A stretch of 64,000 nucleotides of DNA. Source: Alphaproteobacteria bacterium. GTDB taxonomy: Bacteria; Patescibacteriota; Minisyncoccia; Phycocordibacterales; JABAAK01. This document shows positions 1,546-51,457 of this stretch, in pieces. The notes beneath the pieces were generated by a model that worked only from the letters and a program-made list of their open reading frames with translations, ran no database searches and was not told where the DNA came from. Both the position numbers and the translations under genes were made by a program. Location of the stretch: positions 104,663-168,662 of the forward strand of contig JASGCN010000001.1 in assembly GCA_030054135.1 (NCBI GenBank), written 5' to 3'. Each line of letters opens with the position of its first letter. Position 1 is the stretch's first letter.

Positions 1546-2718
1546 TTAGTATTCAAATGGTACATTGTTTGGAATAAAAAAGTTTTTTTCATCTTGTTGA
1601 TGATGAAATTTAACGTTAGGTTTAATAAGTTCTATTGACGGCAAAAAGTTCATTATTTTTTGTTTTATTATTTCAAATTCATTAGGATCTGGTACTTGAA
1701 TATGAATATTTAAATATTTGGTTCTATCAGTATCATTATTTATACCACAATTTTTAACAATACGGTCTATTATTTTTTGATCTACATCTTTATTTGAAAA
1801 AGGAAACGAATATCCTATAACAATTAAATCGCTATATCTAATATTAGCATTTTTTGTATCAATCCAGGTATTTATTTCTTCCAATCCATCTGGTTCCCAT
1901 GTAAATCGTATAGAAGATCTTTCCCTTTTTCCAATCTCATACATGATTTTTTCAGTAAACAGCTTTCCATCATTAGCTTCACCGTTTATTTTTATTTCTC
2001 TTAAATTCACATCATCTAATTTCAATTCTTCTTTTGTTAATTTAAATTGACTATCATAATTCCAATTCAATATGTCAATATTTGAAGGGAACATTTTTTT
2101 GCTGTTTAGTATATCAGCCAAAAAATTTTCATATCTCAAATCCAATTTCTTTTTTCCTTTTGTGTGTATGCGACACAAATATTTAAAAAGCTCTCTGTCC
2201 TTTTTTGTTAATTCAAAAAACCGATTCCACCTTTCTTTCTTAGTGGGGTATTCGATGGATAAACTATCCTGTAGGTTTTTAATTCTTATATTAAACAAAT
2301 TCCAATAGCCATCTGTGTTTTCAAAAACAAAGTCGTCTCTTAATCCTAAATTATTAATAATATCTTTTAAAATGTCGCTATCAGTTTCGCTTTGTTCAAA
2401 TAGTATGAGCACTTCAAATATTTTTGATGTCAAGTTGTAGTTAGGGTTTTCAACATTACCATTTTTTAAAAAATCTATTTTTTGAACAGTATCAAATGAT
2501 CTTTTGAAATATAATCTATCTATTAGGATAAGTGTGCTTTCAAGAAATTCCCCACTTCTATTTATAGTCGTATTGGGCTCTGTTCTAATGGTGTATATAT
2601 ATTCAGCAGATATATAAAGAAAAAAAAGTAAAAATCTATTTCTTATTTCATCTACAATAGGTAAAGCTCCTATACTCGCGCCAGCACCTAATAAATACAC
2701 TATGTTTTTCTCTGCCAT
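1546..2718 (-). CDS. SIR2-like (SIR2_2-type) domain protein, function unknown; candidate NAD-consuming defense effector
   Basis: N-terminal IVYLLGAGASIGALP (SIR2_2-type Rossmann start) and C-terminal LIVIGYSFPFSNKD motif; very AT-rich Asn/Lys/Ile-rich composition; 36 bp downstream of recG on same strand. Confidence 0.5.
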   Translation of the reverse strand: MAEKNIVYLLGAGASIGALPIVDEIRNRFLLFFLYISAEYIYTIRTEPNTTINRSGEFLESTLILIDRLYFKRSFDTVQKIDFLKNGNVENPNYNLTSKIFEVLILFEQSETDSDILKDIINNLGLRDDFVFENTDGYWNLFNIRIKNLQDSLSIEYPTKKERWNRFFELTKKDRELFKYLCRIHTKGKKKLDLRYENFLADILNSKKMFPSNIDILNWNYDSQFKLTKEELKLDDVNLREIKINGEANDGKLFTEKIMYEIGKRERSSIRFTWEPDGLEEINTWIDTKNANIRYSDLIVIGYSFPFSNKDVDQKIIDRIVKNCGINNDTDRTKYLNIHIQVPDPNEFEIIKQKIMNFLPSIELIKPNVKFHHQQDEKNFFIPNNVPFEY

Positions 2719-2754
2719 AATATGCAGTATAGGTATTTTTACTTTTTATTGCAA

Positions 2755-4881
2755 TTATTCCTCCATTAATACGGAGCGTCTTTGTAATTCTTTTTCAGTT
2801 GCTTGAGGCAGGGGAGATGAAAGAGTTTTTTCAGCATACCCTTGAGCATATTCAACAAGTTTAATATTTTTCATTGCCTCCATTGCAAGATCGGGAAGTC
2901 CTGACTGTACATTTCCTGCGTAGTGTCCTGCGCCACGCATATTAAAATCTTCTTGTGCGAGATCAAATCCATTATGGTTTTTTTCAAAAATGCTAAGTCT
3001 TTTTTGAGTTAATTCGTTTTGAGAATCAGTTATTGCAAAACAGTATGGTTGATGTGTTGAACGGATGACGCGTCCGCGTAGTTGATGTAATTGCGAAAGC
3101 CCAAACCTATCACTGTGCAGTATGATAATACTGGTAGCATTAGGAACATTTACACCAACTTCAACAACGGTAGTGGATACTAGTATGTGTATCTTGCCAG
3201 CACGAAATTTTTCAAGCACTTCATCTTTATCTGTTTTTTTAAGTTTGCTATGCAGTGAGCCAATGACTACATCAGGGAACACACTTTTTTTAAGATAGGC
3301 CGCTTCTTCATCAACACTTCTTAATTTTAATTCAGTATCTTCATCTGTATGTTCACTAATACGCGGGCATATAATGTACGCTTGGCGTCCTGATGTTATT
3401 TCTTTACGAATGTGTTCGTATGCGAGAGCTATTTCTTTTTGTGTAAGCACTTTTGTGTGTACTGGTTTTCTTCCTTTTGGCATTTCATCTAGGATAGAAA
3501 TATCCATATCCCCAAACATGGTAAGCGCTAATGTACGAGGAATTGGGGTAGCAGTCATTGAAAGCATATGGGGGATATGTTTATGCTCAGTGAGTAATTT
3601 TTGTCTTTGGGCTACACCAAATCGGTGTTGTTCATCAACAATAGCAAGAGCTAAATGTTTGAATACGACATTTTTTTGCACCAAGGCATGAGTACCAACA
3701 ACCACATTAATAGTGCCGTCTTTCAACCACTCAAGCATTTTCTTTTTTGATATGTTTGCAGATACTTCAGCATATACTTTTGACGGATATTTTAAACATT
3801 CTTTGCTTGTGAGAAGAGCAATAGATATAGGTAAATGATTAAATAGAGAAAGTAATGTTTCGTACTGTTGTCGAGCAAGTATTTCAGTTGGTGCAAGATA
3901 TGCAATTTGAAATCGAGGATATTCAGAATGCTCCCAGACTTGTGTGAGTATTGCATAGATCACAGCTCCCGCAACAGCGGTTTTTCCACTTCCTACATCA
4001 CCTTCAAGAAGGCGTGCCATGGGGGTTTGTTTATTGAGATCGGCTATTATTTCTGTGATGACAGTACGCTGCGCTTGTGTTGGAATAAATTCAAATCGCT
4101 CGTTCATAAATGTATCAATATGTTTTTTGTTAATTGATATAGGAAATGTTTTTGTAAGAGATCGTTCGCGTTTTTCTTTTTTTTGTATAAGCTGTAAAAA
4201 ATATATTTCTTCAAAAATAAATCTTTTTTTAGCTCGTTCATAGGCGTCCACAGTTTTGGGCATGTGTATGCCACGCATAGCATCATACCAATCAGGCAAA
4301 TGCAGTTCTTTTTTTATATATTCTGGAATTGGGTCAGGAGTTTCTTTTATGTCTTGATCGAGAAGAATTTTTTTAATCCGTTCTCGTATAAAAAGTGAAG
4401 ATATTCCATATGTTTCTTTATACCAACACAAAAGTGTTTCATTGGGTGAAGAAAATGATACTGGTGTTTTATTTTCTTCTATAACTGGATTTGTCATATA
4501 CAGTCCTTTATTTGTATCTGATACAGTACCAATTAAAGTAACAGCCATACCACTTTCATATTGTTTTGCAATATAAGGTTGGTGAAACCAAATGGCAGTG
4601 AGCGTCCTGCGTCCTGTTTGTTGTGGGATTTCAATTTTTGCTTCTGTGAGCATAACTCTTTTTGCTCCCATACCTCTGCGCATACGAATACTTTTAATAA
4701 CACCAGAGTAGGTACCTTCTTTTTTTGGAGATTGAGTATCAGACAATTCATGAGTAGTAATACTTTTCGGCACATAGTATAGCAAGTCTCGAACTGTCGT
4801 AATGCCTATGCGTTCAAGAGCATCTCGTTTGTCTTTCGTAATGTGTTCAAGTGTTTTATATAGAGAAGATAAAGATGCCAT
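2755..4881 (-). CDS. recG: ATP-dependent DNA helicase RecG
   Basis: 708 aa; wedge domain then SF2 helicase motifs GDVGSGKTAVAG, DEQHRFGV, TATPIPRTL; typical RecG length. Confidence 0.9.
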   Translation of the reverse strand: MASLSSLYKTLEHITKDKRDALERIGITTVRDLLYYVPKSITTHELSDTQSPKKEGTYSGVIKSIRMRRGMGAKRVMLTEAKIEIPQQTGRRTLTAIWFHQPYIAKQYESGMAVTLIGTVSDTNKGLYMTNPVIEENKTPVSFSSPNETLLCWYKETYGISSLFIRERIKKILLDQDIKETPDPIPEYIKKELHLPDWYDAMRGIHMPKTVDAYERAKKRFIFEEIYFLQLIQKKEKRERSLTKTFPISINKKHIDTFMNERFEFIPTQAQRTVITEIIADLNKQTPMARLLEGDVGSGKTAVAGAVIYAILTQVWEHSEYPRFQIAYLAPTEILARQQYETLLSLFNHLPISIALLTSKECLKYPSKVYAEVSANISKKKMLEWLKDGTINVVVGTHALVQKNVVFKHLALAIVDEQHRFGVAQRQKLLTEHKHIPHMLSMTATPIPRTLALTMFGDMDISILDEMPKGRKPVHTKVLTQKEIALAYEHIRKEITSGRQAYIICPRISEHTDEDTELKLRSVDEEAAYLKKSVFPDVVIGSLHSKLKKTDKDEVLEKFRAGKIHILVSTTVVEVGVNVPNATSIIILHSDRFGLSQLHQLRGRVIRSTHQPYCFAITDSQNELTQKRLSIFEKNHNGFDLAQEDFNMRGAGHYAGNVQSGLPDLAMEAMKNIKLVEYAQGYAEKTLSSPLPQATEKELQRRSVLMEE

Positions 4882-4950
4882 AGCGTATACTTAAGTATAC
4901 GATCTGTATAAAAAGATTCAGCAATACGATTTTCTCTATCAAAAAAATAT

Positions 4951-5343
4951 ATGATATATTTAGGCATCGACATGGGGAGTAAAAATGTTGGCGTTGCGCG
5001 TACCGATGAAGGAGGTCTTATTGCATTTCCAGAATGTGTCGTAGAGCGTTTTGGCTGTGAAGAAAAAATAGTAGCTCTTGCAAAAAAATATAAAGTAGCA
5101 CACATCATTATTGGTGAATCAAAAAATAATCTTATGCAAGACAATCCCATCATGACTGATATACGAGCGTTTGCTTTGTTTTTGGAAAAAGAAGGGTTTA
5201 CTGTAATTCTTGTTCCAGAATTTTTTACTTCAATTGAAGCAGCTCGATTAGGAAAAGGAACAGACGATGAAGCGGCGGCAATTATTTTACAAAGCTATAT
5301 TGACGCAAAACGCGTGGCGTCACATGAAGGTAATGATTTTTAG
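4951..5343 (+). CDS. ruvX: Holliday junction resolvase-like RuvX/YqgF
   Basis: N-terminus MIYLGIDMGSKNVGVARTDE matches the YqgF/RuvX RNase H-like fold signature; ~130 aa. Confidence 0.85.
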   Translation: MIYLGIDMGSKNVGVARTDEGGLIAFPECVVERFGCEEKIVALAKKYKVAHIIIGESKNNLMQDNPIMTDIRAFALFLEKEGFTVILVPEFFTSIEAARLGKGTDDEAAAIILQSYIDAKRVASHEGNDF

Positions 5344-5379
5344 TGGTGAAATGTATCTCATTTTGCTACTCTATGGTAT

Positions 5380-6525
5380 ATGGAAAATATAAAACATACA
5401 TGTATACAGTTTTTGAAAAAATTTATTTCTACAGAAAGAAAAGATGAGCCACTCCTTGAAATTCGCCTCAATAAAAAAAATATATTTCATAATATATCAG
5501 TCCTGAAACACCACGCTCCATTATGGCGCATTGCTCCAGTCGTTAAATCAAATGCGTACGGGCACGGCATTGTGCCAATTGTTACGATGCTGGAAGAACA
5601 TACAGAAGTTGCGTTTGTGTGTGTTGATTCATATTTGGAAGTGCGCAAATTACGAGATGCAGATATTCAAATTCCTATTTTAGTATTGGGCCCAGCAACC
5701 CCTACCACCATTTTTTCTTGTGTATACAAAAAAGTTGCATTCACCATATCTACGTTTAAAGATTTGCAAGCACTTGTTGATGCAAAATCTCAAATACATA
5801 TTCATATTGAATTTGATACTGGCATGCACAGACGAGGATTTCATACCGATGAACTTGAACAGGTGGTAATGCTTTTAGAAAAGAGCTCACTTGTGGTGGA
5901 AGGAATTTTTTCTCATTTTGTGTGTTCAGAAAAAAATAACACAATAACTAAAAAACAAATTCGTGATTGGAATGAATTGCTTCTTGCATGGGAACAAAGA
6001 CGATCACTTCCAAAATATTATCATATAGCAAATTCGTATGGATTTTTATATGCAGATACCATTAGAGCAAATGTTGGAAGAGCAGGGCTTGCATTATATG
6101 GACTTACTCAAAAACCTCTTATCACCACAGCGGTGTTTTCTTTTTTTACTAAGGTAGTCCAAATTCAATCTGTGCGTAAGGGAGAATACATTGGATACGG
6201 CCCACAATTTAAAGCAACCAAAACTATGCAAGTGGCAACAATTCCTGTTGGATACTATGAAGGACTTGACAGACGACTATTTAAAAAAGGTGTAGTGTAT
6301 ATTCATGGACATAAGTGCCAATTACTGGGGATTATGAGCATGAATTTAGCTGTGTGTGATGTCTCATCTATAGAGTGTACCATTGGAGATCCTGTAGAAA
6401 TTGTATCCCCATTGTCTGCAAAAGAAAATAGTATTATATCTATGGCGCGTATAAGTAAAACAATTCCTTATGATATCGTGACACATTTTAATCAAGACAT
6501 AAAACGAGTTGTTGTTGATTTTTAA
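5380..6525 (+). CDS. alr: alanine racemase
   Basis: PLP-lysine motif VVKSNAYGHGI; 381 aa; C-terminal beta domain. Confidence 0.85.
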   Translation: MENIKHTCIQFLKKFISTERKDEPLLEIRLNKKNIFHNISVLKHHAPLWRIAPVVKSNAYGHGIVPIVTMLEEHTEVAFVCVDSYLEVRKLRDADIQIPILVLGPATPTTIFSCVYKKVAFTISTFKDLQALVDAKSQIHIHIEFDTGMHRRGFHTDELEQVVMLLEKSSLVVEGIFSHFVCSEKNNTITKKQIRDWNELLLAWEQRRSLPKYYHIANSYGFLYADTIRANVGRAGLALYGLTQKPLITTAVFSFFTKVVQIQSVRKGEYIGYGPQFKATKTMQVATIPVGYYEGLDRRLFKKGVVYIHGHKCQLLGIMSMNLAVCDVSSIECTIGDPVEIVSPLSAKENSIISMARISKTIPYDIVTHFNQDIKRVVVDF

Positions 6526-6563
6526 TATATTTCTACAGATACAAGTCAGGGTAGACTATATAT

Positions 6564-7442
6564 ATGTCTGAACATATGTATGAAAAACCACTAGACCCAT
6601 TTTTTAGTAGCTTAGATAGTTATTATTACTCGGATGGGAAAAAAGATTTAATTGAAAAAGGTCATTTTTCGATATGGCCCGGTGTTGAACTGTGCACCGT
6701 TGCACTTGAAATAGTTAACGGGAAAGGGCTCGTTGATCGAATTGACAGTATTTTGTTTTGTCCAGGGTCTGGTTTTTTAGAAACAAGTAAAGAGACATCT
6801 GTATTTGTTAATGAAAACGAATGTAGTGTTTCATTTACACAGGGAAAGGTACAAGCAAATGTCAAGATCAATACTCCGCAAGAAGATGTGCGTAAAGAAA
6901 TTACCATGAATGAAGAAAATAAAATGTTCACAAAAGGAAACTCCACAACACTTCCACACAAAGAAGAATATAATTTTGTCCAACCAAAAAACCAAGGAGT
7001 ATTGTTTTTACCACATGAATCGGGTTCTTGTGTGGGTGCATTTTCTCTTGATTTAAAAAAAATAAATTCTTTGAATCCATTTTTCAAAGAAGAAAAATTA
7101 ATTGTTACACGATTAGCAGAAGTAGTGATGCAAAACATTGCTGGGCATCTCGAGCAATTTAATACATATGTTCCTTTGGTTGATACACTGTTATTTGATT
7201 TACATAGTAGAAATGCTGAGATATATATACCAGCAGAAGCGCTCATACATGTTTTTTATAATACAAAAATAGAAATAGATACAAAAAATGAAAAAAGAAG
7301 GAAAGCAGATCTGTATGTGTATATTGAAGTTATGGATAAAAATAAAAAGGATTCAATGATATATGATATGCATGTTAAAGTTAATTTATTAAAGAGAGAA
7401 TTTTTTGATAAATGGCGTGGTGGCAAAAATAAATCAAAATAA
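6564..7442 (+). CDS. hypothetical cytoplasmic protein
   Basis: 292-aa ORF, no recognisable motifs. Confidence 0.45.
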   Translation: MSEHMYEKPLDPFFSSLDSYYYSDGKKDLIEKGHFSIWPGVELCTVALEIVNGKGLVDRIDSILFCPGSGFLETSKETSVFVNENECSVSFTQGKVQANVKINTPQEDVRKEITMNEENKMFTKGNSTTLPHKEEYNFVQPKNQGVLFLPHESGSCVGAFSLDLKKINSLNPFFKEEKLIVTRLAEVVMQNIAGHLEQFNTYVPLVDTLLFDLHSRNAEIYIPAEALIHVFYNTKIEIDTKNEKRRKADLYVYIEVMDKNKKDSMIYDMHVKVNLLKREFFDKWRGGKNKSK

Positions 7443-7445
7443 TTA

Positions 7446-7730
7446 TTATCCAAAAATTTTTCTAAATCCTTCAGCAATGTCTTCATAATTACCAAGCCAG
7501 TATAGAAATAGTCCAAATATTGCACCAAAAACGTTTATCAAAATAACCCATGTCTGTATATTATTTAAACGGATTTCATTGTTTGATATTAATTTTTTAA
7601 CTCCATCAACAATTTTTGCATGTGTTTCATCATTATCTTGGATGCCTTTAATAACACGTTTGAGAGAATCTTCATTTTGTGTAATTTTTTTCTCTATGGT
7701 GTCAATTTTTTTCTCTAATTCTTTTGTCAT
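7446..7730 (-). CDS. hypothetical small membrane protein (coiled-coil N-terminus, C-terminal TM helix)
   Basis: 94-aa ORF convergent with upstream gene; TM segment WVILINVFGAIFGLFLYWL. Confidence 0.4.
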   Translation of the reverse strand: MTKELEKKIDTIEKKITQNEDSLKRVIKGIQDNDETHAKIVDGVKKLISNNEIRLNNIQTWVILINVFGAIFGLFLYWLGNYEDIAEGFRKIFG

Positions 7731-7786
7731 ATATGTAATATATATTCATTATAATGAGATGGTATATATGGTTGTGTATAAGTTTT

Positions 7787-8476
7787 TTATTTTTTTGTAG
7801 GAAACAAATCAGAAATCTTGAACCGAATGAAATGTCCTTCTGGTATATATTGCAATGTGAGTAATCCTATGCGTATTCGGTGAATGTGGGTAACTGTGTA
7901 TCCATACGCTTGAACCATTCTTTTTATTTGTCTATTTTTTCCTTCAGTAAGAATAATAGAAAAAGAGTGTGCATCAATACGGGTGGCATGGCACGTTTTT
8001 GTTATTTCTGTATATCTTTGTGCATGCATGTATACTCCATCTTCTAAAAATTGTAAAAAAGTATCTGTTACTTGTTCTTGAATAGTAACAATGTATTCTT
8101 TTTCAATATGTGTGTTGGCCCCTATAATTTTTTTTGTGAGTGTACGGTCGTTGGTCATGATAATAAGTCCGGTTGAGTTTTTGTCTAATCTTCCAATTGG
8201 AAATACTTTTCTGGGAAATGTAGTGTGTGTAGTAATTTCAATTTCTTTATATTGTGGAGCAGTGGTAACAATGCCTGCTGGTTTATGGTATGCGTAATAC
8301 ACTTTACTATTTTTCTTTTCAGGGATAGTCACCGTGTCTATGGCAGGGTCAATCAATTGCCCAATGCATGCAGGGGAGCCATTTACTAGTACCAATTGAT
8401 CGCGTATGTATTCATCAGCTTCTCGTCTACTGGTAATACCTTGTTCTGATAAATATTTATTAATTCTAATTTTCAT
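7787..8476 (-). CDS. rRNA pseudouridine synthase, RsuA/RluB family
   Basis: S4 domain MKIRINKYLSEQGITSRREADEYI plus catalytic GRLDKNSTGLIIMTND motif. Confidence 0.8.
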   Translation of the reverse strand: MKIRINKYLSEQGITSRREADEYIRDQLVLVNGSPACIGQLIDPAIDTVTIPEKKNSKVYYAYHKPAGIVTTAPQYKEIEITTHTTFPRKVFPIGRLDKNSTGLIIMTNDRTLTKKIIGANTHIEKEYIVTIQEQVTDTFLQFLEDGVYMHAQRYTEITKTCHATRIDAHSFSIILTEGKNRQIKRMVQAYGYTVTHIHRIRIGLLTLQYIPEGHFIRFKISDLFPTKK

Positions 8477-8520
8477 AAAATACTATTTAAGTATAATGTA
8501 TTTTCATACTATACTGGAGT

Positions 8521-9048
8521 ATGTTGCCGTTTACAAAATTCATTATATTCATCGTAGTGCTATCGTTAATCGGTATTTTTTCTGTTGCATTTGTACGAAA
8601 CGAACGGCCTCAAAGACAAATTCAACCAAGAGCTACCTTTGTTCCTCCTACATACACTCCACCAACATTTACATCACCTCGATACACACCGCCCTCGTAT
8701 TCATCACCTGGATTCTCCCCTCAACCATTTACTGCACAAGGATTTACCCCTTCACAATTTAAATCACAAACGTATTCCCCCCCACTGTATACACCTCCAA
8801 AATATATTGCCCCTACATATTCTTCTCCTATATATACGCCAACGTATTACAATCCAACTATTTATACTCCGGTTACATATACCCCACCACAAAAATATGC
8901 AATATTTGAATTTTTTAGATTCAACACAACTTCAACACCTACCGTCATCACTCCCATCTCAAAATCAATTCCTACTCCTGTCATAGTTACACCACCACCA
9001 CCTGCAAAATCTTGTAGCGCATGTAGTCCAAATGCTAAAAGAATATAA
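8521..9048 (+). CDS. membrane-anchored Tyr/Pro/Thr-rich repeat protein (YxPP repeats)
   Basis: N-terminal TM helix then ~25 imperfect tandem repeats of xx(Y/F)(T/S)PP; low complexity; alternative-frame ORF 8585..8986 is a repeat artefact. Confidence 0.5.
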   Translation: MLPFTKFIIFIVVLSLIGIFSVAFVRNERPQRQIQPRATFVPPTYTPPTFTSPRYTPPSYSSPGFSPQPFTAQGFTPSQFKSQTYSPPLYTPPKYIAPTYSSPIYTPTYYNPTIYTPVTYTPPQKYAIFEFFRFNTTSTPTVITPISKSIPTPVIVTPPPPAKSCSACSPNAKRI

Positions 9049-9065
9049 ATAAAGTATAATCATGT

Positions 9066-9746
9066 ATGAAAGAAAATGATATACATGCAAATCTAATTAA
9101 TGCTCTTAATTGGCGTTATGCTGTACAAGTGTTTGACGAAAAAAAGAAAATATCTGACAGTGATATAAAAACTATTCTTGAAGCGGGAAGACTGGCTCCT
9201 TCTTCATTTGGACTTCAGCCTTGGAAATTTATTGTGATTACTGATATTGCACTTCGTAAAAAATTAGTTCCTATCTGTTTCAATCAAGAAAAAATAACAA
9301 CCTGTTCTCATGTAATTGCGCTTGCATACAAAAAAAATATTACACAAAAAGATATCGATGCATATATTTCCGATATGGCACATACAAGAAATATTTCCAA
9401 AGATTCTCTTGAAGGGTTTAAAAATGCAATCAAGCAGGCTGTGCATATTAAAAAATTGTCATCACTTAATCCATTTCGTGGTGCAGGGGGTATGCAGGCA
9501 TGGAATGCAAGACAAACATATATTCCTTTAGGAATGATGATTGCAAGTGCATCTCTTTTGAAAATTGATTCAGCTCCTATGGAAGGATTTGTTGCTCCAT
9601 TGGTAAATCATTGCATCGGAATAGACAATGAATACACTGTGTGTACGCTTTTAGCACTTGGGTACAGAAGTGAAAACGACCCGTATGCCACACTCAAAAA
9701 ATCACGGTTCAGCGCATCTAGCATTATTGAATGGCGCAAAGGATAA
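9066..9746 (+). CDS. nitroreductase family protein (NfsB-like)
   Basis: N-terminal LNWRYAVQVFD...ILEAGRLAPSSFGLQPWKFIVI matches nitroreductase fold signature. Confidence 0.8.
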   Translation: MKENDIHANLINALNWRYAVQVFDEKKKISDSDIKTILEAGRLAPSSFGLQPWKFIVITDIALRKKLVPICFNQEKITTCSHVIALAYKKNITQKDIDAYISDMAHTRNISKDSLEGFKNAIKQAVHIKKLSSLNPFRGAGGMQAWNARQTYIPLGMMIASASLLKIDSAPMEGFVAPLVNHCIGIDNEYTVCTLLALGYRSENDPYATLKKSRFSASSIIEWRKG

Positions 9747-9770
9747 TATATATTCATATATACTTATAAT

Positions 9771-10712
9771 ATGATAAAAAAAATTTCTCAAAAACCATTA
9801 CACGGTGAGGAGACAAAAGCGGTGGCACTTCTTTTTGTGCACATTGGTATTTTGGTAACGCTCATTATGACTATCATTGGTTTTTTTCTTGTAACATTTG
9901 GTGCAATTCGTTATTATGTTCCTGACACACTTGATTCAGTATGGGATACGGAACGAATTTCTTCATCAGTTGGGTTTGGAGTTGCAATGCTCATTACTGC
10001 TTTTAGCATTTTATTTTATTTAACACGAAAGGTAAATATATCTGATCCATTAACATGGGGGGTATGGATTGCAAGAATACGACAAGCAATTATTGCCTGT
10101 GCTGTAACTTTTTCTGTGATCGCAATTGGTGTTGTGGCTATTCAAACTATTGGGAGTTTTCTTTCAGGAGATCTTTCATTGCGATTTATACTACGAAGCA
10201 TTGCAACAGTTACATTAGCAGGGGCGGTATTTTATTATTATCGTCTTGCATGGGGACATTATTGGCATACTCACAGAGAAACATCTCTTCGTATTGGAAT
10301 TGTTTTTTCTTGTATAGTACTTGTCCTTGTTATTGTTGGTATAAAGGTCGTTAATCCAGTACAAGTGAGAAAATATAAAATTGATAATCAAATAGTAACT
10401 AATTTTGAAACAATTAGATCAAAAGTTCTTGAATATTATCACGTGCATGCAAATACTCCAGAAGAAGTACACACTATTATTCGGGGTCTTCCTTCTAATG
10501 TATCTTACAGAAAAGTATCTCAATCAACATATACAGTATGTGGCATATTCGCTTTACCTAGCCAATCAGTAGTAAATAAATCTCAATTTGTTTCAACCGA
10601 ATCTTTCTATCATTCAACCGCTGGAGAGCAATGTTATGTTATTTCGATTGTACAAAAGAATGGAGAATACCCACGTGATGGGGTAGCTCCAGTAGTAAAA
10701 CAGTCGCGTTAG
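9771..10712 (+). CDS. hypothetical integral membrane protein
   Basis: 313 aa, ~6 predicted TM helices then soluble C-terminal domain. Confidence 0.5.
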   Translation: MIKKISQKPLHGEETKAVALLFVHIGILVTLIMTIIGFFLVTFGAIRYYVPDTLDSVWDTERISSSVGFGVAMLITAFSILFYLTRKVNISDPLTWGVWIARIRQAIIACAVTFSVIAIGVVAIQTIGSFLSGDLSLRFILRSIATVTLAGAVFYYYRLAWGHYWHTHRETSLRIGIVFSCIVLVLVIVGIKVVNPVQVRKYKIDNQIVTNFETIRSKVLEYYHVHANTPEEVHTIIRGLPSNVSYRKVSQSTYTVCGIFALPSQSVVNKSQFVSTESFYHSTAGEQCYVISIVQKNGEYPRDGVAPVVKQSR

Positions 10713-10747
10713 TTTACTTGTGACTTACTTGTTGATAAGATAGTATC

Positions 10748-12349
10748 ATGTTGTTTTCTGTCACTGATATAGCAAAAAGTTTTGGGCCCCATGATGTTTT
10801 TTCAAATCTTTCTTTTAGAGTAGACGAAGGGCAAAAAATTGCACTCGTTGGTGAAAATGGTGTTGGAAAGAGTACTCTTTTGAAGTGTATTGCAGGAATA
10901 GAAGAGGTCGATGCAGGTACAATTGATATTGCAGATGGCAGACGGATTGCATACCTTCCTCAAGAAATATCCATAGAAGATTCACGCACGACAAAAGAAT
11001 ATGTACAAAGCTCTGCACAAGGACAATTTGAAGAACACAAGGTATTTGCTCTTATGGATGGGTTTGGACTTTCTCAACATGTATGGGTGACCCCACTTCA
11101 GAAATTATCTGGTGGACAAAAATCAAAAGTATTATTTTTAAGATTTTTACTTGAAGATGCTGATGTGTATTTGTTAGATGAACCAACAAATAATCTAGAT
11201 ATGAAAGCGCTTCTGTGGCTTGAAGCGTATCTATCACAAACAAAAAAATCTATGCTTATTATTTCTCACGATGTGTATTTTTTGAAGCGAGTTGCGAATC
11301 GAGTGATTGAATTAACAGGAGAAGATGGCATTTCTTCTTCTCGGGGGAGTTATGCTGATTATTTAGAACGGAAAGATAAACATTTTTTACAACAAATGCA
11401 AGCGTATAAAGAATACAGAAAAAAAATGACTCAATTAGAAAAAACAAGTCGTAGCATACAAGATAAACAAAAAGATATAGACACGCATGAGACATCTGAC
11501 TCAGATAAATATACTTCTGGATTTCAAAAAGATCGTGCAACATCTGGCATGTCACAGTCTCAAGTGTTAAAAAAGAAAATGGAACAAATTGAAATAGTAG
11601 AAAAACCATTTGAAGAAGATGTTTATGAAATAGAAATACAGTCAAAATATTTAGAAACTGATTTATCAATTCGATTAAAAGATGTAGTCGCAGGGTATAA
11701 GCACGCTCATAACAAAAGAGGATCCCTTGCTATTGGCCCATTTTCAACAACATTAACTCCAGGAAAACGAATATGTATTATGGGAGGAAATGGAGAAGGG
11801 AAAACAACACTTATCAAGACAATACTCGGTGATCTTAATCCACTTGAAGGAACAATTGATATAAGTGAAAACATTATTTTCGGGGATCTTCTTCAACAGC
11901 AAGAACGTGCAGAAAGAAGTAAAACAGTAATTGAATTTATGATGTCAGAAACACATTGCAATGAAGAACGAGCTAGGCATATTCTTAAAAAATATCATCT
12001 CCCAGAAAATATTTTTTATGCAAAAATAGAAGGGTTGTCTTCTGGGACACGAGCGAGGCTTCTCATTGCGTGTTTTGCAGTATTGGGTGTAAATACTCTT
12101 GTGCTTGATGAACCAACCAACCATCTCGACATAGAAGGTGTTCGTGCAATTGTACAAATGTTAGATTCTTATAAAGGAATAGTAATAATAATCTCACACA
12201 ACAGGTGGTTTCTTGAACAAGTACGAATAGACGAATATTTTTCTCTTAAAGACGGTACTCTTGAAAGAATAGCAGATATTGAAAAATATATTACAGATGC
12301 AAAAGCAGAATCTGCTAAAATGGTGAAAAAAATAGCAAGATTAGTTTAG
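10748..12349 (+). CDS. ABC-F family ATPase (two ABC cassettes, no TM domain), copy 1
   Basis: Two Walker A (GENGVGKST, GGNGEGKTT), two LSGGQ signatures and two Walker B (LLDEPTNNLD, VLDEPTNHLD) with a charged inter-domain linker; 533 aa. Confidence 0.9.
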   Translation: MLFSVTDIAKSFGPHDVFSNLSFRVDEGQKIALVGENGVGKSTLLKCIAGIEEVDAGTIDIADGRRIAYLPQEISIEDSRTTKEYVQSSAQGQFEEHKVFALMDGFGLSQHVWVTPLQKLSGGQKSKVLFLRFLLEDADVYLLDEPTNNLDMKALLWLEAYLSQTKKSMLIISHDVYFLKRVANRVIELTGEDGISSSRGSYADYLERKDKHFLQQMQAYKEYRKKMTQLEKTSRSIQDKQKDIDTHETSDSDKYTSGFQKDRATSGMSQSQVLKKKMEQIEIVEKPFEEDVYEIEIQSKYLETDLSIRLKDVVAGYKHAHNKRGSLAIGPFSTTLTPGKRICIMGGNGEGKTTLIKTILGDLNPLEGTIDISENIIFGDLLQQQERAERSKTVIEFMMSETHCNEERARHILKKYHLPENIFYAKIEGLSSGTRARLLIACFAVLGVNTLVLDEPTNHLDIEGVRAIVQMLDSYKGIVIIISHNRWFLEQVRIDEYFSLKDGTLERIADIEKYITDAKAESAKMVKKIARLV

Positions 12350-12397
12350 TATTTTTTTATAGTTTACTTGTGATTTATTTGTTGATAAGATAGTATC

Positions 12398-13999
12398 ATG
12401 TTGTTTTCTGTCACCGATATGGCAAAAAGTTTTGGACCACGTGAGGTATTAGCCAAGATATCTTTTAAGGTGGACGAAGGGCATAAAATAGCTGTAGTTG
12501 GAGAAAACGGTGTCGGTAAAAGCACTTTGCTTAAATGCATTATAGGAATTGAAGATATAGACAATGGAGAGATAATTATTGCAGACGGAAAGAAAATTGC
12601 ATATTTACCACAAGAAATTCCACTTGAAGATAACAGAACTGTTGAAGAGTACATACAAGATTCAAAGCACGGACTATTTGAAAAACATAAAATTTTTCCA
12701 TTTATGGATGGGTTTGGTCTTTTTGAAGAAATATATACAGTAAATCTCCAAAAACTCTCCGGAGGACAAAAATCAAAAGTACTTTTTATCAAATTTTTAC
12801 TTGAAAATGCAGATGTGTATTTGCTTGATGAGCCGACCAACAACTTAGACATGAAGTCACTCCTTTGGATTGAGGAATATTTAGCCCAAGAGAAAAAATC
12901 AATGCTTATAATTTCTCATGATTTATATTTTCTAAAAAAAGTTGCAAATCGTGTACTTGAAATAAATGGATTAGAAGGTGCAGAATTTTCTAGAGGGTCA
13001 TACGCCGATTATCTTGAAAGAAAAGAAAAAAAGTATTTAGAAGAACTCCAAGCATACAAAGACTATCAAAAAAAGTTTACACAACTTAAAAAATTAAGAA
13101 GAATCGTGCAAAATAGGCAACAAATGATAGACAATATTGATGGAGAGACTTGTGAGATAAAGTCAGCTGATCTGATAAGGGAAGCCATTAGCAGGGAAAT
13201 GCATATTTCACGGGTGTTAAAAAAAAGAATGGAAATGCTAGAAGTTGCTGAAAAACCATTCGAAGAAGAACTATATGTTATCGAGATTCATCCAAAAAAT
13301 TTAGAAAAAAATCCATCAATTAGTTTAAAAGATGTAGTTGCAGGATATAAAGTATCACACAACAAAAAAGGAACTCTAAGAATCGGTCCGTTTTCTGCAA
13401 ACCTTACACCAGGAAAACGAATATGTATTATGGGAGGAAATGGAGAAGGGAAAACAACACTTGTAAAAACAATTTTAGGAGTGCTCTCTCCATTGGACGG
13501 AGAGCTGAAGGTAAGTGAAAATATTGTTTTTGGAGATTTACTTCAACAACAAGAACGTGCGGAGAGAAGCAAAACTGTTATTGAATTTGTTACATCTCAA
13601 ACTGATTTAAACAAAGAAAGAGTTCATCATATGATAAAAAAATATCATTTACCTGAAGGTGTTTTTAATGCAAAAATAGAGGGGCTATCTTCCGGTACTC
13701 GTGCGAGATTACTCCTTGCATGTTTTGCTTCAATTGGCGTAAACACTTTAATTCTTGATGAACCAACTAACAACTTAGACATATCAGGTGTTCGTGCAAT
13801 TGTACAAATGTTAGATTCTTATAAAGGAATAGTAATAATAATCTCACACAACAGGTGGTTTCTTGAACAAGTACGAATAGACGAATATTTTTCTCTAGAG
13901 GAAGGAACACTTACTCGAATTGAGGACATTCAACAGTATATTACTTCTGCTCAAATAGAAACAGAAAAAATGATAAAACGAATCTCGCGTCTTGTGTAA
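12398..13999 (+). CDS. ABC-F family ATPase, copy 2 (paralog of 10748..12349)
   Basis: Same architecture and length (533 aa); paralog with mosaic identical nucleotide tracts. Confidence 0.9.
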   Translation: MLFSVTDMAKSFGPREVLAKISFKVDEGHKIAVVGENGVGKSTLLKCIIGIEDIDNGEIIIADGKKIAYLPQEIPLEDNRTVEEYIQDSKHGLFEKHKIFPFMDGFGLFEEIYTVNLQKLSGGQKSKVLFIKFLLENADVYLLDEPTNNLDMKSLLWIEEYLAQEKKSMLIISHDLYFLKKVANRVLEINGLEGAEFSRGSYADYLERKEKKYLEELQAYKDYQKKFTQLKKLRRIVQNRQQMIDNIDGETCEIKSADLIREAISREMHISRVLKKRMEMLEVAEKPFEEELYVIEIHPKNLEKNPSISLKDVVAGYKVSHNKKGTLRIGPFSANLTPGKRICIMGGNGEGKTTLVKTILGVLSPLDGELKVSENIVFGDLLQQQERAERSKTVIEFVTSQTDLNKERVHHMIKKYHLPEGVFNAKIEGLSSGTRARLLLACFASIGVNTLILDEPTNNLDISGVRAIVQMLDSYKGIVIIISHNRWFLEQVRIDEYFSLEEGTLTRIEDIQQYITSAQIETEKMIKRISRLV

Positions 14000-14032
14000 T
14001 TGTTCAGTGATGCTACGCTATACTGATAGTAT

Positions 14033-16966
14033 ATGCAATATAATGCGCGTGAAGGGGACGCCCCAGTGTTTGACACTATTAAAGATGAGATGACTTTCAT
14101 ACGTCAAGAAATTGACAAAGAATTGAAAGATCAGGTTCTCTCTTCACCAGAGAATGCTTCTTCATTGGGAAGTGGTGGAAGTGCATCGCGTACTAAAGAA
14201 CGAGAAGCAATAAAAGAAGCTTTGCATATATTATTTGAAAAAAAGCAAATATCATTCGCTTTAAAAAAACCTGATGGTGAATTTGTGGAGAATATATCTT
14301 CATTATCCACACACATGGAAAGTAAAGTAAATAAATATGTATCTCAAGCACTCACTGATGGAATTGTAAAAACAGTATATGAAGTACAAAAAAAGGAACC
14401 AAATTTTCCATTTGATATTTTTCATGATGTACTTGCTGAAAAAATTTTTGCAGAGCAAATTAAAAAGAAAAAAAAATCTTTTTTTTCTACTATTTCCACT
14501 GAGGGCATAGGGGTGGTAGTAGGAAGTGTCGCAGTGCTTGTAGGGGTTGGATTTCTTTTTCGATCGAACCCATTTATTCTTGCAATAAGTATAGGAGTAT
14601 CTGTGTTTGTATTTGTAGTGTGGTATGAATATCTTCAGAATCAAAAAAAGACACGAGATGCAATTGACTATCGATTACTTCGCGTTGTAGTGAAACGTGC
14701 AGATGAAGGGCAGGGGGGCACTGATAAAATAAAATTATTTGAACAATTGATTGATGATTTAGTAATTCTTGATTCAGAACACATCACATTTGAAGTGGCA
14801 GTCGCCAACTCAAACAATGATATTGTATTTTATTGTATTGTTCCAACGCATTATATTAAACCAACGCGGGATACGATTCATCGTATTTTTACTACAGCAC
14901 AAGTAATAGAAGTTCCTGATTACACGCCGTTTCGTGAAGGAAACAATGATATGGGGGCAGCGTTAATACAGAAAAAACACTTTGCTCTTCCGTTGCGTAC
15001 ATATACCGACACCAATCAAGACATATTTTCTTCTGTGCTTAACGTATTTGCTCGTGCACAACAAGATAATGTTGGGTTAGCACTGCAAATGTGTATTCGT
15101 CCAGCTCGTCAAAGACAGAAAGAAATGTTGGAAATTATAAAAAGCATGGAACACAAAACTCCATTTAAAGTGGCAGCCTCCTTGTCATTTGGAGATTATG
15201 TGTATGCGTATTATTACTGGACAACAGAGTTATTGTTTGGAGGCAAGAAAGAACTTTCATCAACAGATGCGGAGTATTTTGAAAAAATAAAAAAGAAAAA
15301 AGATAAGCACTTGTATGATATTAACATGCGGTTAGTAATTTCAACCGAAGACCCGCTACTGACACAAAGAATATTTGAAAACATATACGGAGAGTATAAA
15401 CAATTCAGTATTCCCGGATACAATTCTTTTGTATTAGAGAAAAGAAAAACAAAACCATTTTTCTTTAAATATATCTTCCGTCTTTTTGATGAGAATGAAC
15501 TTCTGACACTTAACACAGAAGAAATCGCAAGTGTATTTCACTTACCGAACGTGGAGATTCAAATGCAAGATATTAAACATTTAAAAAGTAGAAAATTATC
15601 TGCTCCATCTGATTTACCAATTACCGGTTTGCTTATGGGGGATAACGAATTTAATGGTGTATCAAAAGAAGTTCGGATAGAGCCACCAGAACGATTGCGT
15701 CATTTATATATCATTGGGCAAACTGGTACAGGTAAGACTGCATTTATGAATAGTGCGGTGATGCAAGATATTCAAGAAGGGAGAGGTGTATGTGTACTTG
15801 AACCAAACGGAGACTTTATAGAAAAAATTATGAGCACAATTCCAGAACATCGACTGGATGATGTTATAGTATTTGATCCTAGCAATGTGGCTATGCCGAT
15901 GGGTCTTAATATGCTTGAGTATGATAGAAGCAGACCTGAGCAAAGAACCTTTATTGTAAATGAAATGATTTCAATTTTTAGAACTCTTTTCTCAGCAGAG
16001 ACAATGGGGCCATTCTTTGATCAGTATATGCGAAATGCACTTCTTCTTTTAATGGAAGGAAGTGTCGATGAATATGGCACACTGGTAGAAGTTCCATCAG
16101 TACTTATTAATGCAGATTATAGAAAAAAACTTCTTGCAAATTGTAAAAATGACACAGTGCGTCGTTTTTGGATTGAAGAAGCTGAAAAAGTAAAGGGAGA
16201 TTTGTCTCTCGAAGAAACCGCTCCATACATTACTTCAAAAATAAACGGATTTATTGCAAACGATTATATTTTCCCAATCATAGGGCAATCTCGTTCGTCT
16301 ATAAATTTTAGAGATATTATGGACAACAAAAAAATCTTATTAGGAAAGCTCTCCAAAGGACGCATCGGAGAAATTAACGCAAACTTAATAGGTATGATGA
16401 TAACAGGGAAACTAACACTTGCTGCATTTTCTCGTGATGATATTCCAGAAAATGATCGGGTACCATTTTATTTCTACATTGACGAATTTCAAAACTTCAC
16501 TACCAAATCAATTGGAACTATTCTTTCTGAAGCTCGTAAGTACCGTTTGAGTTTAACTGTTGCGCACCAATATATGAAACAATTGCCTGAGGATATTCTC
16601 GCAGCAGTACTCGGAAACGTTGGTTCATTTGTTTCATTCCGTATAGGTATTGAAGATGCAGATATTATCAAAAAACAATTTGGTTCAGAGGTGGACAGTC
16701 AAGACCTTACCGAACTTGAAAATCTTAATGGGTTCGTTCGATATTTAGTTCGCAATGCTCCAACAAAGCCATTTTCAATGAAAATTCGATTTGCTCCAGA
16801 TGGAATAAAAGAAGTACGGGATATTGTCGTAAAGTATTCTTCTCTTAAATATGCTCGGCCCCTTGAGGAAGTGCTTGTTGAAATAAAAGAGCGTTTGAAT
16901 CCTTCAACAAAAGAATCTTCAAAAGAAAATACAGACATTCCTGATATTTCTAAATTTTTCGAGTAA
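14033..16966 (+). CDS. VirD4/TraD/TrwB-like (type IV coupling protein-like) membrane ATPase with large unknown N-terminal region
   Basis: 977 aa; coiled-coil N-terminus, two TM helices (aa ~160-200), Walker A IIGQTGTGKTAF, Walker B FYFYIDEFQNF, EARKYRLSLTVAHQ motif characteristic of T4CP/TraG-D family. Confidence 0.6.
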   Translation: MQYNAREGDAPVFDTIKDEMTFIRQEIDKELKDQVLSSPENASSLGSGGSASRTKEREAIKEALHILFEKKQISFALKKPDGEFVENISSLSTHMESKVNKYVSQALTDGIVKTVYEVQKKEPNFPFDIFHDVLAEKIFAEQIKKKKKSFFSTISTEGIGVVVGSVAVLVGVGFLFRSNPFILAISIGVSVFVFVVWYEYLQNQKKTRDAIDYRLLRVVVKRADEGQGGTDKIKLFEQLIDDLVILDSEHITFEVAVANSNNDIVFYCIVPTHYIKPTRDTIHRIFTTAQVIEVPDYTPFREGNNDMGAALIQKKHFALPLRTYTDTNQDIFSSVLNVFARAQQDNVGLALQMCIRPARQRQKEMLEIIKSMEHKTPFKVAASLSFGDYVYAYYYWTTELLFGGKKELSSTDAEYFEKIKKKKDKHLYDINMRLVISTEDPLLTQRIFENIYGEYKQFSIPGYNSFVLEKRKTKPFFFKYIFRLFDENELLTLNTEEIASVFHLPNVEIQMQDIKHLKSRKLSAPSDLPITGLLMGDNEFNGVSKEVRIEPPERLRHLYIIGQTGTGKTAFMNSAVMQDIQEGRGVCVLEPNGDFIEKIMSTIPEHRLDDVIVFDPSNVAMPMGLNMLEYDRSRPEQRTFIVNEMISIFRTLFSAETMGPFFDQYMRNALLLLMEGSVDEYGTLVEVPSVLINADYRKKLLANCKNDTVRRFWIEEAEKVKGDLSLEETAPYITSKINGFIANDYIFPIIGQSRSSINFRDIMDNKKILLGKLSKGRIGEINANLIGMMITGKLTLAAFSRDDIPENDRVPFYFYIDEFQNFTTKSIGTILSEARKYRLSLTVAHQYMKQLPEDILAAVLGNVGSFVSFRIGIEDADIIKKQFGSEVDSQDLTELENLNGFVRYLVRNAPTKPFSMKIRFAPDGIKEVRDIVVKYSSLKYARPLEEVLVEIKERLNPSTKESSKENTDIPDISKFFE

Positions 16967-17115
16967 CCACCACTATGATGGTTTTTTGCAATCCTTGCAT
17001 TTCTTCTATTTTTTTGTTATAAATTAAGATATCTAGTCAATCAGTGTATTGTTGTTTAGTGTAAAATAATTTACTCTATACAAGAAAATATTTGATATTG
17101 CTAGATACAATAATT

Positions 17116-18695: not shown

Positions 18696-19259
18696 ATGAC
18701 TGAACCAACAAACACACCAATAGAAAATAATTCTCCTACTAGTTCTACACAAGCACCTGCACAAGAAAAAGGTCGTTCACGAACAAAACACGCAGAGGCT
18801 CGAAGAAGATCACATCGTTCACAACCAAGACAGAGAAGCGAATTTGATAGAAAAGTATTATCAGCACGAAGAGTGACTCGTGTTGTTGCTGGAGGAAGAA
18901 GAATGTCTCTCGCAGTAGCCGTTGCGGTGGGTGATAAACAAGGACGCGTTGGCATTGGTACAGGGAAAGGACTTGATATGGCATCAGCAACAGAAAAAGC
19001 TCTTACACAAGCAAAAAAAAATATGATTCGAATTCCACTGACTAAAAATGGGAGTATCCCTCACGATGTTTCAGCAAAGTATTGTGCTTCATCCGTAATT
19101 CTTCGACCGAGTCAAAGTTTCGTAGCAGGAGGAGCAGTGCGAGTTGTAGCATCTCTTGCTGGTATCAAAGGAATTAATGCAAAAATTCTTTCTCGTAGCA
19201 AAAACGCAATTAATAATGCACAAGCAACAATTAAAGCTCTTCAAAAATTTACATCATAA
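18696..19259 (+). CDS. rpsE: 30S ribosomal protein S5
   Basis: RVTRVVAGGRRMSLAVAVAVGDKQGRVGIGTGKG core; N-terminal basic extension. Confidence 0.9.
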   Translation: MTEPTNTPIENNSPTSSTQAPAQEKGRSRTKHAEARRRSHRSQPRQRSEFDRKVLSARRVTRVVAGGRRMSLAVAVAVGDKQGRVGIGTGKGLDMASATEKALTQAKKNMIRIPLTKNGSIPHDVSAKYCASSVILRPSQSFVAGGAVRVVASLAGIKGINAKILSRSKNAINNAQATIKALQKFTS

Positions 19260-19265
19260 TTATTT

Positions 19266-19703
19266 ATGTATACTTTCACTTTTAAAAACAAAAAATCAAG
19301 ACGCTTTGGACGAGGAGGTTCTCGTGGTAAAACATCTGGTCGAGGAGGAAAAGGACAAACTGCGCGTGCGGGGCATTCAGTGAAACCAGCGATTAGAGAT
19401 TTTATTCAAAGTTTACCAAAATTAAGAGGGCACGGAAAAAATAGAGCTCTTTCAGTGGATGCTGCTATTCTTGCTCCTCAAGCGATTGCGCTTACAAAAC
19501 TTGAAGCTCATTTTAATTCAGGTGATAAAGTAACTCCTGCAATTCTTTCAAGAAAACATTTAATTAAAAAACAAAAGGGCAAAATACGCATGCCAAAAAT
19601 AGTAGGAACTGGTACACTTACCAAAAAACTTACTGTTCGTGGTTGTTTTTACACAGAAAATGTTAAAAAAATAATAGAAAAATTAGGTGGAACGATTCGT
19701 TAG
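19266..19703 (+). CDS. rplO: 50S ribosomal protein L15 (directly after S5; no L30 gene)
   Basis: SRRFGRGGSRGKTSGRGGKGQ glycine/arginine N-terminus. Confidence 0.9.
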   Translation: MYTFTFKNKKSRRFGRGGSRGKTSGRGGKGQTARAGHSVKPAIRDFIQSLPKLRGHGKNRALSVDAAILAPQAIALTKLEAHFNSGDKVTPAILSRKHLIKKQKGKIRMPKIVGTGTLTKKLTVRGCFYTENVKKIIEKLGGTIR

Positions 19704-47671: not shown

Positions 47672-47673
47672 TT

Positions 47674-51456: not shown

Positions 51457-51457
51457 T

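Follow-up and report, generated by a model that had tools for sequence, protein, structure and literature searches.

Domain architecture of a DUF8128-type ATPase

The forward strand of a 64,000-nucleotide stretch of contig JASGCN010000001.1 (positions 104,663 to 168,662 of the contig; the whole stretch is referred to below as the window) contains an open reading frame (ORF) at window positions 14033-16966 that begins with ATG and encodes a protein of 977 residues. The identical protein in NCBI is the hypothetical protein QM526_00630, which carries the precomputed Pfam entry PF26449 (DUF8128); it is filed there under an 'Alphaproteobacteria bacterium' metagenome-assembled genome, a label that probably reflects a binning or taxonomy error. 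The gene product is a fusion comprising, from the N-terminus, a domain homologous to a small protein termed sm1 here, a transmembrane (TM) hairpin, DUF8128 and an ATPase of the type IV coupling protein (T4CP) kind. These features are located as follows.

14033-16966, forward strand: whole gene, from the ORF list, encoding the 977-residue fusion of sm1-like domain, TM hairpin, DUF8128 and T4CP-type ATPase
14033-14485, forward strand: helical domain, residues 1-151, homologous to the small sm1 protein (sm1 hidden Markov model, HMM; helical in the predicted model, with a predicted local distance difference test score, pLDDT, of 50-83)
14405-14449, forward strand: conserved motif FPFDIFHDVLAEKIF in the sm1-like domain (alignment)
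14504-14644, forward strand: TM hairpin, with TM1 at residues 158-176, a 3-residue loop and TM2 at residues 180-201 (Kyte-Doolittle scan and direct reading)
14666-15547, forward strand: DUF8128 (PF26449), an alpha/beta domain, residues 212-505 (precomputed Pfam)
15629-16903, forward strand: TrwB/VirD4-type ATPase, residues 533-957, consisting of a RecA-like nucleotide-binding domain (NBD) and an all-alpha insertion (Pfam, NCBIfam, Foldseek)
15716-15739, forward strand: Walker A motif GQTGTGKT, residues 562-569; G562, G565, G567 and K568 are invariant in 91 sequences
15920-16327, forward strand: all-alpha insertion, about residues 630-765, between Walker A and Walker B (model helices at 635-764; TrwB_AAD_bind matches)
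16469-16498, forward strand: Walker B motif YFYIDEFQNF, residues 813-822; D817, E818, F819, Q820 and N821 are invariant in the same 91 sequences
16526-16573, forward strand: SEARKY...AHQ motif SEARKYRLSLTVAHQY, residues 832-847; R835, K836 and Q846 are likewise invariant

The original prediction, made from the DNA letters and their translations, had assigned the C-terminal half of this ORF to the T4CPs on the basis of Walker A, Walker B and EARKY...HQ motifs, all of which are present. It had also placed two TM helices before the ATPase, as in TrwB. The two helices exist but do not directly precede the motor, as about 330 residues, mostly DUF8128, lie between. The N-terminal region of some 500 residues, described at the time as lacking recognisable motifs, resolves into the sm1-like domain, the hairpin and DUF8128.

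The ATPase domain

The C-terminal 425 residues constitute a TrwB/VirD4-like ATPase of the FtsK/HerA superfamily, in which all catalytic motifs are conserved; the SEARKY...AHQ motif likely provides the arginine finger and sensor region typical of these enzymes. The Pfam coupling-protein matches of the protein appear weak but specific. Among the families that had been proposed as diagnostic, T4SS-DNA_transf (E 3.4e-5, 23.3 bits against a cut-off of 20.1, residues 549-884) and TrwB_AAD_bind (21.1 bits against 20.5) were above their cut-offs, while TraG-D_C (21.5 against 22) and DUF87 (19.5 against 23.2) were below them. A profile of the family reached TrwB (E 6.9e-9) and DotL (E 1.9e-4) in the PDB and no VirB4 chain. 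The protein thus displays a RecA-like NBD with Walker A and B motifs and sequence kinship to T4CPs, and in the predicted structure, which resembles TrwB with a template-modelling score (TM-score) of 0.60-0.65, an all-alpha domain is inserted in the NBD. The assignment of the C-terminal half to the T4CPs is therefore upheld.

Matches to other motors of this superfamily were sought in the same protein. The VirB4 profiles CagE_TrbE_VirB and AAA_10 gave no Pfam or NCBIfam match at E<=1, and no Pfam match to an FtsK_SpoIIIE motor with alpha and gamma domains was found in the 977 residues. A canonical FtsK, complete with alpha, motor and gamma domains, is encoded elsewhere in the window (39662-41953). 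The protein is not an FtsK, and the earlier suggestion of a repurposed FtsK is not supported.

With TrwB (R388), VirD4, TraD, DotL and Cag-beta the protein shares the RecA-like ATPase, the all-alpha insertion, the Walker A and B motifs, the arginine and glutamine motifs and an N-terminal membrane anchor. It differs from these proteins in having a domain of about 300 residues between anchor and motor, in the 3-residue loop of its hairpin, which leaves no periplasmic loop, and in lacking linkage to a relaxase or a type IV secretion system (T4SS).

A conserved gene of the Patescibacteria

Homologues were sought in one genome per species, yielding at least 518 confirmed stretches, and lineages were read for the best 80. 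The alignment comprised 91 sequences; ORFs were called and clustered in 84 loci, with neighbour searches extending over +/-10 kb. The best 80 stretches are all from Patescibacteria, where they occupy housekeeping contexts, and include Paceibacterota, Nomurabacteria, Staskawiczbacteria, Uhrbacteria, Komeilibacteria, Magasanikbacteria and Vogelbacteria. All close homologues derive from metagenome-assembled genomes of this group, for which Candidate Phyla Radiation (CPR) is another name. They are 33-45% identical to the window protein from about residue 190 to the C-terminus, and carry precomputed PF26449 together with DUF87, TrwB_AAD_bind, T4SS-DNA_transf and TraG-D_C matches. PF26449 is precomputed on the identical protein (P0001), on 16 of 18 other homologues and on three homologues from the contigs that were read. 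The DUF8128 region alone retrieved 590 representatives of 50%-identity clusters at E<=1e-3. Within DUF8128, residues E254, D330, Q352, K422, R483, E497 and H503 are invariant in the alignment, which, together with the invariant residues of the ATPase, suggests that the enzyme is active and that both domains are under selection.

Three gene arrangements recur in the 84 loci, each tracking named lineages. In the first, sm1 is followed by a short form of the protein (786-873 residues). The second, seen in about 10 genomes of Uhr-, Komeili-, Falkow- and Magasanik-bacteria, consists of an unrelated small gene (sm11), the short form, a protein of about 220 residues (c19) and DnaX. In the third a long form (888-968 residues) lies directly after the spc operon in the order Adk-Map-[gene]-Ndk, an arrangement found in about 20 Paceibacteria-type genomes.

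The G+C content is about 35% across the whole window, with no shift around the gene, and Rfam, tRNA and repeat scans of its flanks were empty, with no tRNA, repeat pair or integrase. Combined with the lineage-tracking contexts, this indicates that the gene belongs to the core genome and is not part of a cryptic conjugative element, a possibility raised in the original prediction. That prediction had also named conservation across related genomes as the finding that would count against it, and such conservation is what the survey revealed. From these comparisons, the gene is a conserved, apparently vertically inherited, core-genome member of a DUF8128-type coupling-protein family in Patescibacteria.

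Several loci show variations on these themes. The sm11 proteins (about 150-200 residues; L023, L024, L028, L035, L078, L081-L083 and similar loci) share the conserved motif IPGVN.FFLEQEAKIKT. One ORF of 1164 residues (L046, positions 2484-5978) joins a methionine aminopeptidase in frame to a long-form DUF8128 ATPase, which is either a real Map fusion or the product of a stop codon lost in assembly. In Moranbacteria-type loci (L087-L089) a small DUF5663 protein precedes sm1 and the DUF8128 ATPase; a divergent PMT_2 glycosyltransferase lies further upstream, and the sm1-ATPase pair is flanked by large unannotated proteins that displayed no T4SS features on reading. Some DUF8128 proteins (P0093, P0100, P0128, P0158 and P0161) are 1,400-2,000 residues long, with C-terminal extensions that contain no Pfam domain.

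The sm1 partner and its fusion to the motor

In sister lineages sm1 (about 130-150 residues) is encoded by a gene of its own, which lies directly upstream of the DUF8128 ATPase gene and sometimes overlaps it by 4 nucleotides. The sm1 HMM matches the N-terminal parts of the window protein (E 9.2e-13) and of 35 long-form members, and therefore the long forms and the window protein are sm1-ATPase fusions. The signature of the family is KG[IV]..A....P[FY].LD.FHD.L, in which D128, H131 and L134 are invariant in the alignment. A profile search identified at least 557 sm1 homologues of about 145 residues without a Pfam domain; those bearing source names are all called hypothetical or have an evidently unrelated automatic name. 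The three homologues that were looked up, each independently retrieved, are all encoded directly upstream of a DUF8128 protein. Searches with the sm1 profile returned coiled-coil noise from the PDB and no family from Pfam. The sm1 protein is not hydrophobic. In a neighbour-joining tree of the DUF8128 and ATPase region the window protein is sister to 14 unfused short forms, so its fusion arose independently of those in the long forms.

The number of TM helices varies with the state of fusion. A hydropathy census of 85 members showed that all short forms have one N-terminal TM helix, all long fused forms have none and the window protein has two. The two-helix hairpin that joins sm1 to the DUF8128-ATPase is unique to the window protein among these 85 members. 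It is flanked by basic residues, KKKKK before and QKKTR after, which, given the 3-residue loop, implies that both of its ends are cytoplasmic; sm1 would then be a cytoplasmic partner of the motor. The hairpin may correspond to the N-terminal anchor of T4CPs, but lies 330 residues upstream of the NBD, with DUF8128 in between, and the relatives have one TM helix or none.

The single N-terminal helix of the unfused relatives would place their motor in the cytoplasm. With such an N-out topology, fusion of sm1 would be tolerated only if the helix were lost, as in the long forms, or a second helix were added, as in the window protein. In either type of fusion the sm1 partner and the motor would work jointly at the membrane's cytoplasmic face.

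Plasmid and phage relatives

Full-length relatives of the protein are found outside the Patescibacteria, at identities of 21-32%. The Bacillus subtilis plasmid NZ_CP154917.1 (L086, positions 3558-14333) encodes an 885-residue homologue, WP_345805471.1, that aligns with a hhalign probability of 100% (E 2.1e-40). The gene is followed by those for a Replic_Relax relaxase, TcpC, TcpE and an AAA_10 VirB4-like ATPase, and its slot beside the relaxase, separate from VirB4, is the classical position of a coupling protein. WP_345805471.1 shares the DUF8128 and ATPase core over its full length; it differs from the window protein (identity about 24%) in having no TM helix and no sm1 domain, in its long acidic tail and in its conjugation-gene neighbours. 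This plasmid is typed as 'non-mobilizable', yet the module is apparently complete. In a metagenomic relative (P0018) a T4CP of the DUF8128 type is fused to a Replic_Relax domain. The relaxase-adjacent slot and the P0018 fusion suggest that the family has its ancestry in monoderm conjugation modules, in agreement with the published origin of the Patescibacteria T4SS. The conjugative ancestry suspected for the gene is thus supported. Linkage to relaxase or mating-pair-formation genes was found for the Bacillus plasmid homologue, and neither in the window nor in the 84 loci. No VirB4, relaxase, TcpC, TcpE-like or other T4SS protein is detectable in the 64-kb window, as had been noted from the outset for VirB4 and the relaxase.

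Full-length DUF8128 and ATPase proteins also occur in SPO1-like phages and in phage G. The phage family phrog_5156 matches residues 244-962 of the window protein (E 1.2e-62). BS_SP10_203 of Bacillus phage SP-10 (843 residues; L085, positions 2566-5434) aligns over DUF8128 and the ATPase (hhalign E 2.8e-27), and in Bacillus phage G (L090, positions 1838-6338) both gp156 and the adjacent 'VirB-like' gp155 match the DUF8128 model. These proteins share the full-length architecture, including DUF8128, and a small gene directly upstream; they differ in being phage-encoded, and the overlapping 114-residue upstream protein of SP-10 has two TM helices and is unrelated to sm1. Literature searches on DUF8128, or on VirD4 in Bacillus phage, returned nothing useful.

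A predicted VirB4-like fold for DUF8128

AlphaFold models were built, from 17 sequences in each case, for the full-length protein and for residues 204-539. The full-length model (pLDDT 76.7 overall, about 90 in the ATPase) begins with a helical N-domain, followed by the TM region, then an alpha/beta domain (residues 213-500) and lastly a RecA-like domain, into which helices are inserted at 635-764. When this model was compared with the PDB using Foldseek, TrwK/VirB4 of R388 ranked first (best E 1e-14, about 840-920 aligned columns), followed by HerA, then TrwB (TM-score 0.60-0.65, target-normalised) and then DotL and Cag-beta; the target-normalised TM-scores of TrwB, DotL and Cag-beta span 0.5-0.65. 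The model of residues 204-539 alone (pLDDT 76.3, predicted TM-score 0.77) gave TrwK/VirB4 as its top 13 PDB matches (E 3e-6 to 6e-5, TM-score 0.41-0.48, query-normalised), after which came unrelated ferredoxin-like folds with a TM-score of 0.18. The absence of any RecA-fold ATPase from this list, which also contains no HerA chain, suggests that the match is to the VirB4-specific N-terminal domain. Thus, in place of a region without motifs, structure prediction gives a helical sm1-like part and an alpha/beta domain that appears to adopt the fold of the VirB4 N-terminal domain. TrwK/VirB4 (PDB 7o42 and 8rtd) would therefore share with the window protein an alpha/beta N-domain followed by a TrwB-like ATPase, and differ from it in genomic role and in the lack of sequence-level kinship: in hhalign, the family and the AAA_10 VirB4-like protein encoded on the Bacillus plasmid matched with a probability of 1.5%. 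As TrwB and DotL are reached by sequence and VirB4 is not, the protein is best described as a T4CP-type motor that carries a module with a predicted likeness to the VirB4 N-domain.

These structural matches raise the question of whether the protein is instead a divergent VirB4-type assembly ATPase, with sm1 or the TM segment acting as VirB3. The ranking of TrwK/VirB4 first for the whole model and its exclusive recovery by the N-domain are consistent with such a role, and the small upstream gene, sometimes fused, recalls VirB3-VirB4, as does the overlapping two-TM protein of SP-10. Against this stand the lack of CagE_TrbE_VirB and AAA_10 matches, the hhalign result, a sequence profile that finds TrwB and DotL and no VirB4 chain, the non-hydrophobic character of sm1 and, in the Bacillus plasmid, a separate VirB4 besides the DUF8128 protein in the relaxase-adjacent slot. 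Furthermore, Patescibacteria possess their own VirB4 proteins, which, according to a survey, form a monophyletic clade with T4SS neighbours (Quinonero-Coronel et al. 2025, PMC12102498). A VirB4-type function is, on this evidence, improbable.

The original prediction had also mentioned a HerA-like translocase. A role as a HerA-type helicase in DNA repair or in defence against phages has still less in its favour. HerA structures are among the top Foldseek matches of the full-length model, and there are weak matches to DUF87, to NCBIfam HerA_antiphage and to the PADLOC models mad8 and HerA; the PADLOC matches were rejected as generic P-loop similarity. All of these scores are, however, under the family cut-offs, as in the case of DUF87 above, and no NurA, Sir2, DUF4297 or other effector partner was found beside the gene in 85 loci. 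The domain-only model, whose predicted fold is VirB4-like, returned no HerA chain, and both the all-alpha insertion and the signal for TraG-D_C are characteristic of T4CPs. We consider a HerA-type role very improbable.

Genomic neighbourhood

The genes that flank the ORF are located as follows.

12398-13999, forward strand: upstream neighbour, an ABC-F ATPase gene, the second of two tandem paralogs, ending 33 nucleotides 5' of the start codon
17116-17388, forward strand: downstream neighbour, S14, the first gene of an S14-S8-L6-L18-S5-L15-SecY-Adk-Map block

The gene is probably co-transcribed with the upstream ABC-F gene. No terminator-like site was found between the two on the forward strand, where the promoter and terminator scan performed no better than on shuffled sequence. 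The tandem ABC-F paralogs (10748-12349 and 12398-13999, both on the forward strand) encode 533 residues each and are 69% identical; no counterpart of the pair was seen in the 84 related loci. Proteins of about 580 residues near the gene in L025, L027 and L030 (cluster c69) were considered as equivalents of the ABC-F proteins and rejected, as they are zinc-ribbon proteins.

Downstream, the order is S14-S8-L6-L18-S5-L15-SecY-Adk-Map-Ndk. It is possible that S14 has its own promoter (ttgcat, a 17-nucleotide spacer and tataaa, near 16990-17025), a site that was read by eye in a region where the consensus scan was no better than for shuffled sequence. L16, S17, L14, L24 and L5 from related genomes had no tblastn match anywhere in the 64-kb window, and therefore the ribosomal cluster is split here between L5 and S14. 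The gene indeed sits where L5, L24 and L14 would be expected to precede S14, as the original prediction had pointed out.

A break in the spc cluster exactly at the gene, together with homologues on plasmids and in phages, among them the phrog_5156 family, could be taken to mean that a conjugative element, plasmid or prophage once integrated by chance into the ribosomal protein cluster and left the gene behind. This explanation is close to refuted by the uniform G+C content, the lack of an integrase, tRNA or flanking repeats, the phylum-wide orthologues with lineage-specific synteny and the low identity (21-32%) of the plasmid and phage homologues, and is barely credible.

Other features of the window were recorded in passing. 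S5 is followed after 6 nucleotides by L15, with no L30 gene between them (18696-19703). L11 (27535-27957) precedes the gene for isoleucyl-tRNA synthetase, where L1 would be expected, and L10-L7/L12 (46094-46995) lies 18 kb away; such ribosomal-protein peculiarities are of the kind described for CPR lineages. An insertion at residues 507-675 of the isoleucyl-tRNA synthetase (28002-31481, forward strand, 1159 residues) is a histidine-phosphatase domain, His_Phos_1 (E 1.9e-28). A type IV pilus-like cluster on the forward strand (47096-53386 and 55523-56508), identified by eye from translations, contains a PilB-like ATPase (48627-50225), a PilC-like protein (50242-51456), a prepilin peptidase-like protein (52616-53386) and several small prepilin-like proteins. 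Finally, an ORF of 175 residues (8521-9048, forward strand) combines an N-terminal hydrophobic segment with Pro/Thr/Tyr-rich, YTPP-like repeats and has no Pfam match.

Proposed function

We propose that the DUF8128-type coupling-protein ATPase acts as a membrane substrate receptor and translocase, most likely serving a relaxase-less T4SS, an explanation that on balance we favour. In this model the protein would assemble as a hexameric, ATP-driven receptor and translocase tethered at the cytoplasmic face of the membrane, where the motor would recruit a macromolecular substrate, either nucleic acid or protein, and hand it to a relaxase-less Patescibacteria T4SS encoded elsewhere. The sm1 domain may serve as a built-in regulator, adaptor or loader of the motor. 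A possible analogue is CagZ of Helicobacter pylori (PDB 8dol), a small helical protein that is encoded with the T4CP Cag-beta and regulates it. Having originated in monoderm conjugation modules, the gene would have become a vertically inherited chromosomal gene expressed from housekeeping operons.

Orphan coupling-protein genes are already known in Patescibacteria. The survey cited above reports 5,713 VirD4-type homologues in 2,918 of 3,035 genomes (about 96%), only 148 of them near virB4, and finds relaxases almost absent from the phylum (PMC12102498). These orphan homologues are chromosomal, nearly universal, far from virB4 and without a relaxase, a description that the window gene fits exactly. 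In its accessible text, the survey treats the proteins only as HMM matches and makes no mention of DUF8128, of sm1 or its fusions, of the pattern in TM number or of the repeated occurrence of the gene where the spc operon ends. New here are the map of the domains, sm1 as a partner that was fused independently in separate lineages, the logic that links fusion to TM number, the predicted VirB4-like N-domain and the plasmid and phage relatives.

Several points weigh against this model of a receptor and translocase. Within +/-10 kb in the 84 loci, searches of limited sensitivity for very divergent proteins found neither T4SS or relaxase homologues nor a second ATPase resembling T4CPs or VirB4. The NCBIfam coupling-protein models CD1115 (conju_CD1115), TrbC and TraD all scored below threshold, the best at 38.1 bits against a cut-off of 250, so that no curated equivalog is matched and all scores lie far under the respective cut-offs. 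The lack of a TM helix in long-form members means that membrane anchoring is dispensable in whole lineages. The VirB4-like fold derives from AlphaFold models of 17 sequences with a pLDDT of about 76, and the regulator or adaptor role of sm1 is drawn purely by analogy. According to the survey, VirB4 is present in 2,417 Patescibacteria genomes (80%), VirD4-type homologues being more widespread, and in S. epibionticum the t4cp homologue, which may or may not belong to DUF8128, is non-essential, while T4SS genes are essential (PMC12102498). Moreover, neither a coupling protein nor a relaxase could be recognised in the essential T4SS cluster (Wang et al. 2023, PMC10633639).

The main alternative is an exapted motor that, together with sm1, would work independently of any T4SS and serve housekeeping by translocating or remodelling nucleic acids at the membrane or close to it. 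Such an enzyme might take up or handle host-derived DNA or RNA, or act as a second chromosome-segregation pump beside FtsK. This view, which we regard as fairly unlikely, is consistent with VirD4-type homologues that are unlinked to virB4 in >97% of cases and more widespread than VirB4, and the survey explicitly leaves their exaptation open (PMC12102498). It is also consistent with the housekeeping operons, namely Adk-Map-[gene]-Ndk (about 20 genomes), [gene]-c19-DnaX (about 10) and the site upstream of S14 in the window, with the TM-less variants, and with relatives carried by SPO1-like phages and phage G, neither of which possesses a conjugation apparatus. A 2026 preprint, furthermore, argues that Patescibacteria feed on host RNA (10.64898/2026.06.21.733656). 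Conversely, no substrate or channel partner of such a motor has been identified, its operon neighbours vary between lineages and none indicates one pathway, and these organisms already possess a canonical FtsK and ComEC-dependent competence (PMC12857230). Moreover, T4CP genes far from virB4 are common in ordinary conjugative systems too (PMC12102498).

A phylum-wide version of the exapted motor can be envisaged, in which a coupling protein with a VirB4-type N-domain became a T4SS-free housekeeping nucleic-acid translocase in the ancestor of the Patescibacteria. One possible job of this enzyme would be to handle the host-derived RNA or DNA on which nucleotide-auxotrophic epibionts live. We view this proposal as more doubtful again; if true, ancestral exaptation would explain the greater universality of the motor compared with VirB4, its sites in ribosomal and nucleotide-kinase operons and the loss of the anchor.

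For the window itself, the consequence is mainly the correct annotation of a known kind of gene, which is not a mobile element disrupting a ribosomal operon. The domain map, the unannotated sm1 partner family, the topological argument and the tractable Bacillus plasmid and phage relatives offer handles for experiments. Much of bacterial diversity falls within the Patescibacteria, which live off macromolecules taken from host cells. A T4CP-type motor that nearly every genome encodes, without linkage to the essential T4SS, is an obvious candidate for a component of macromolecule acquisition in these organisms.

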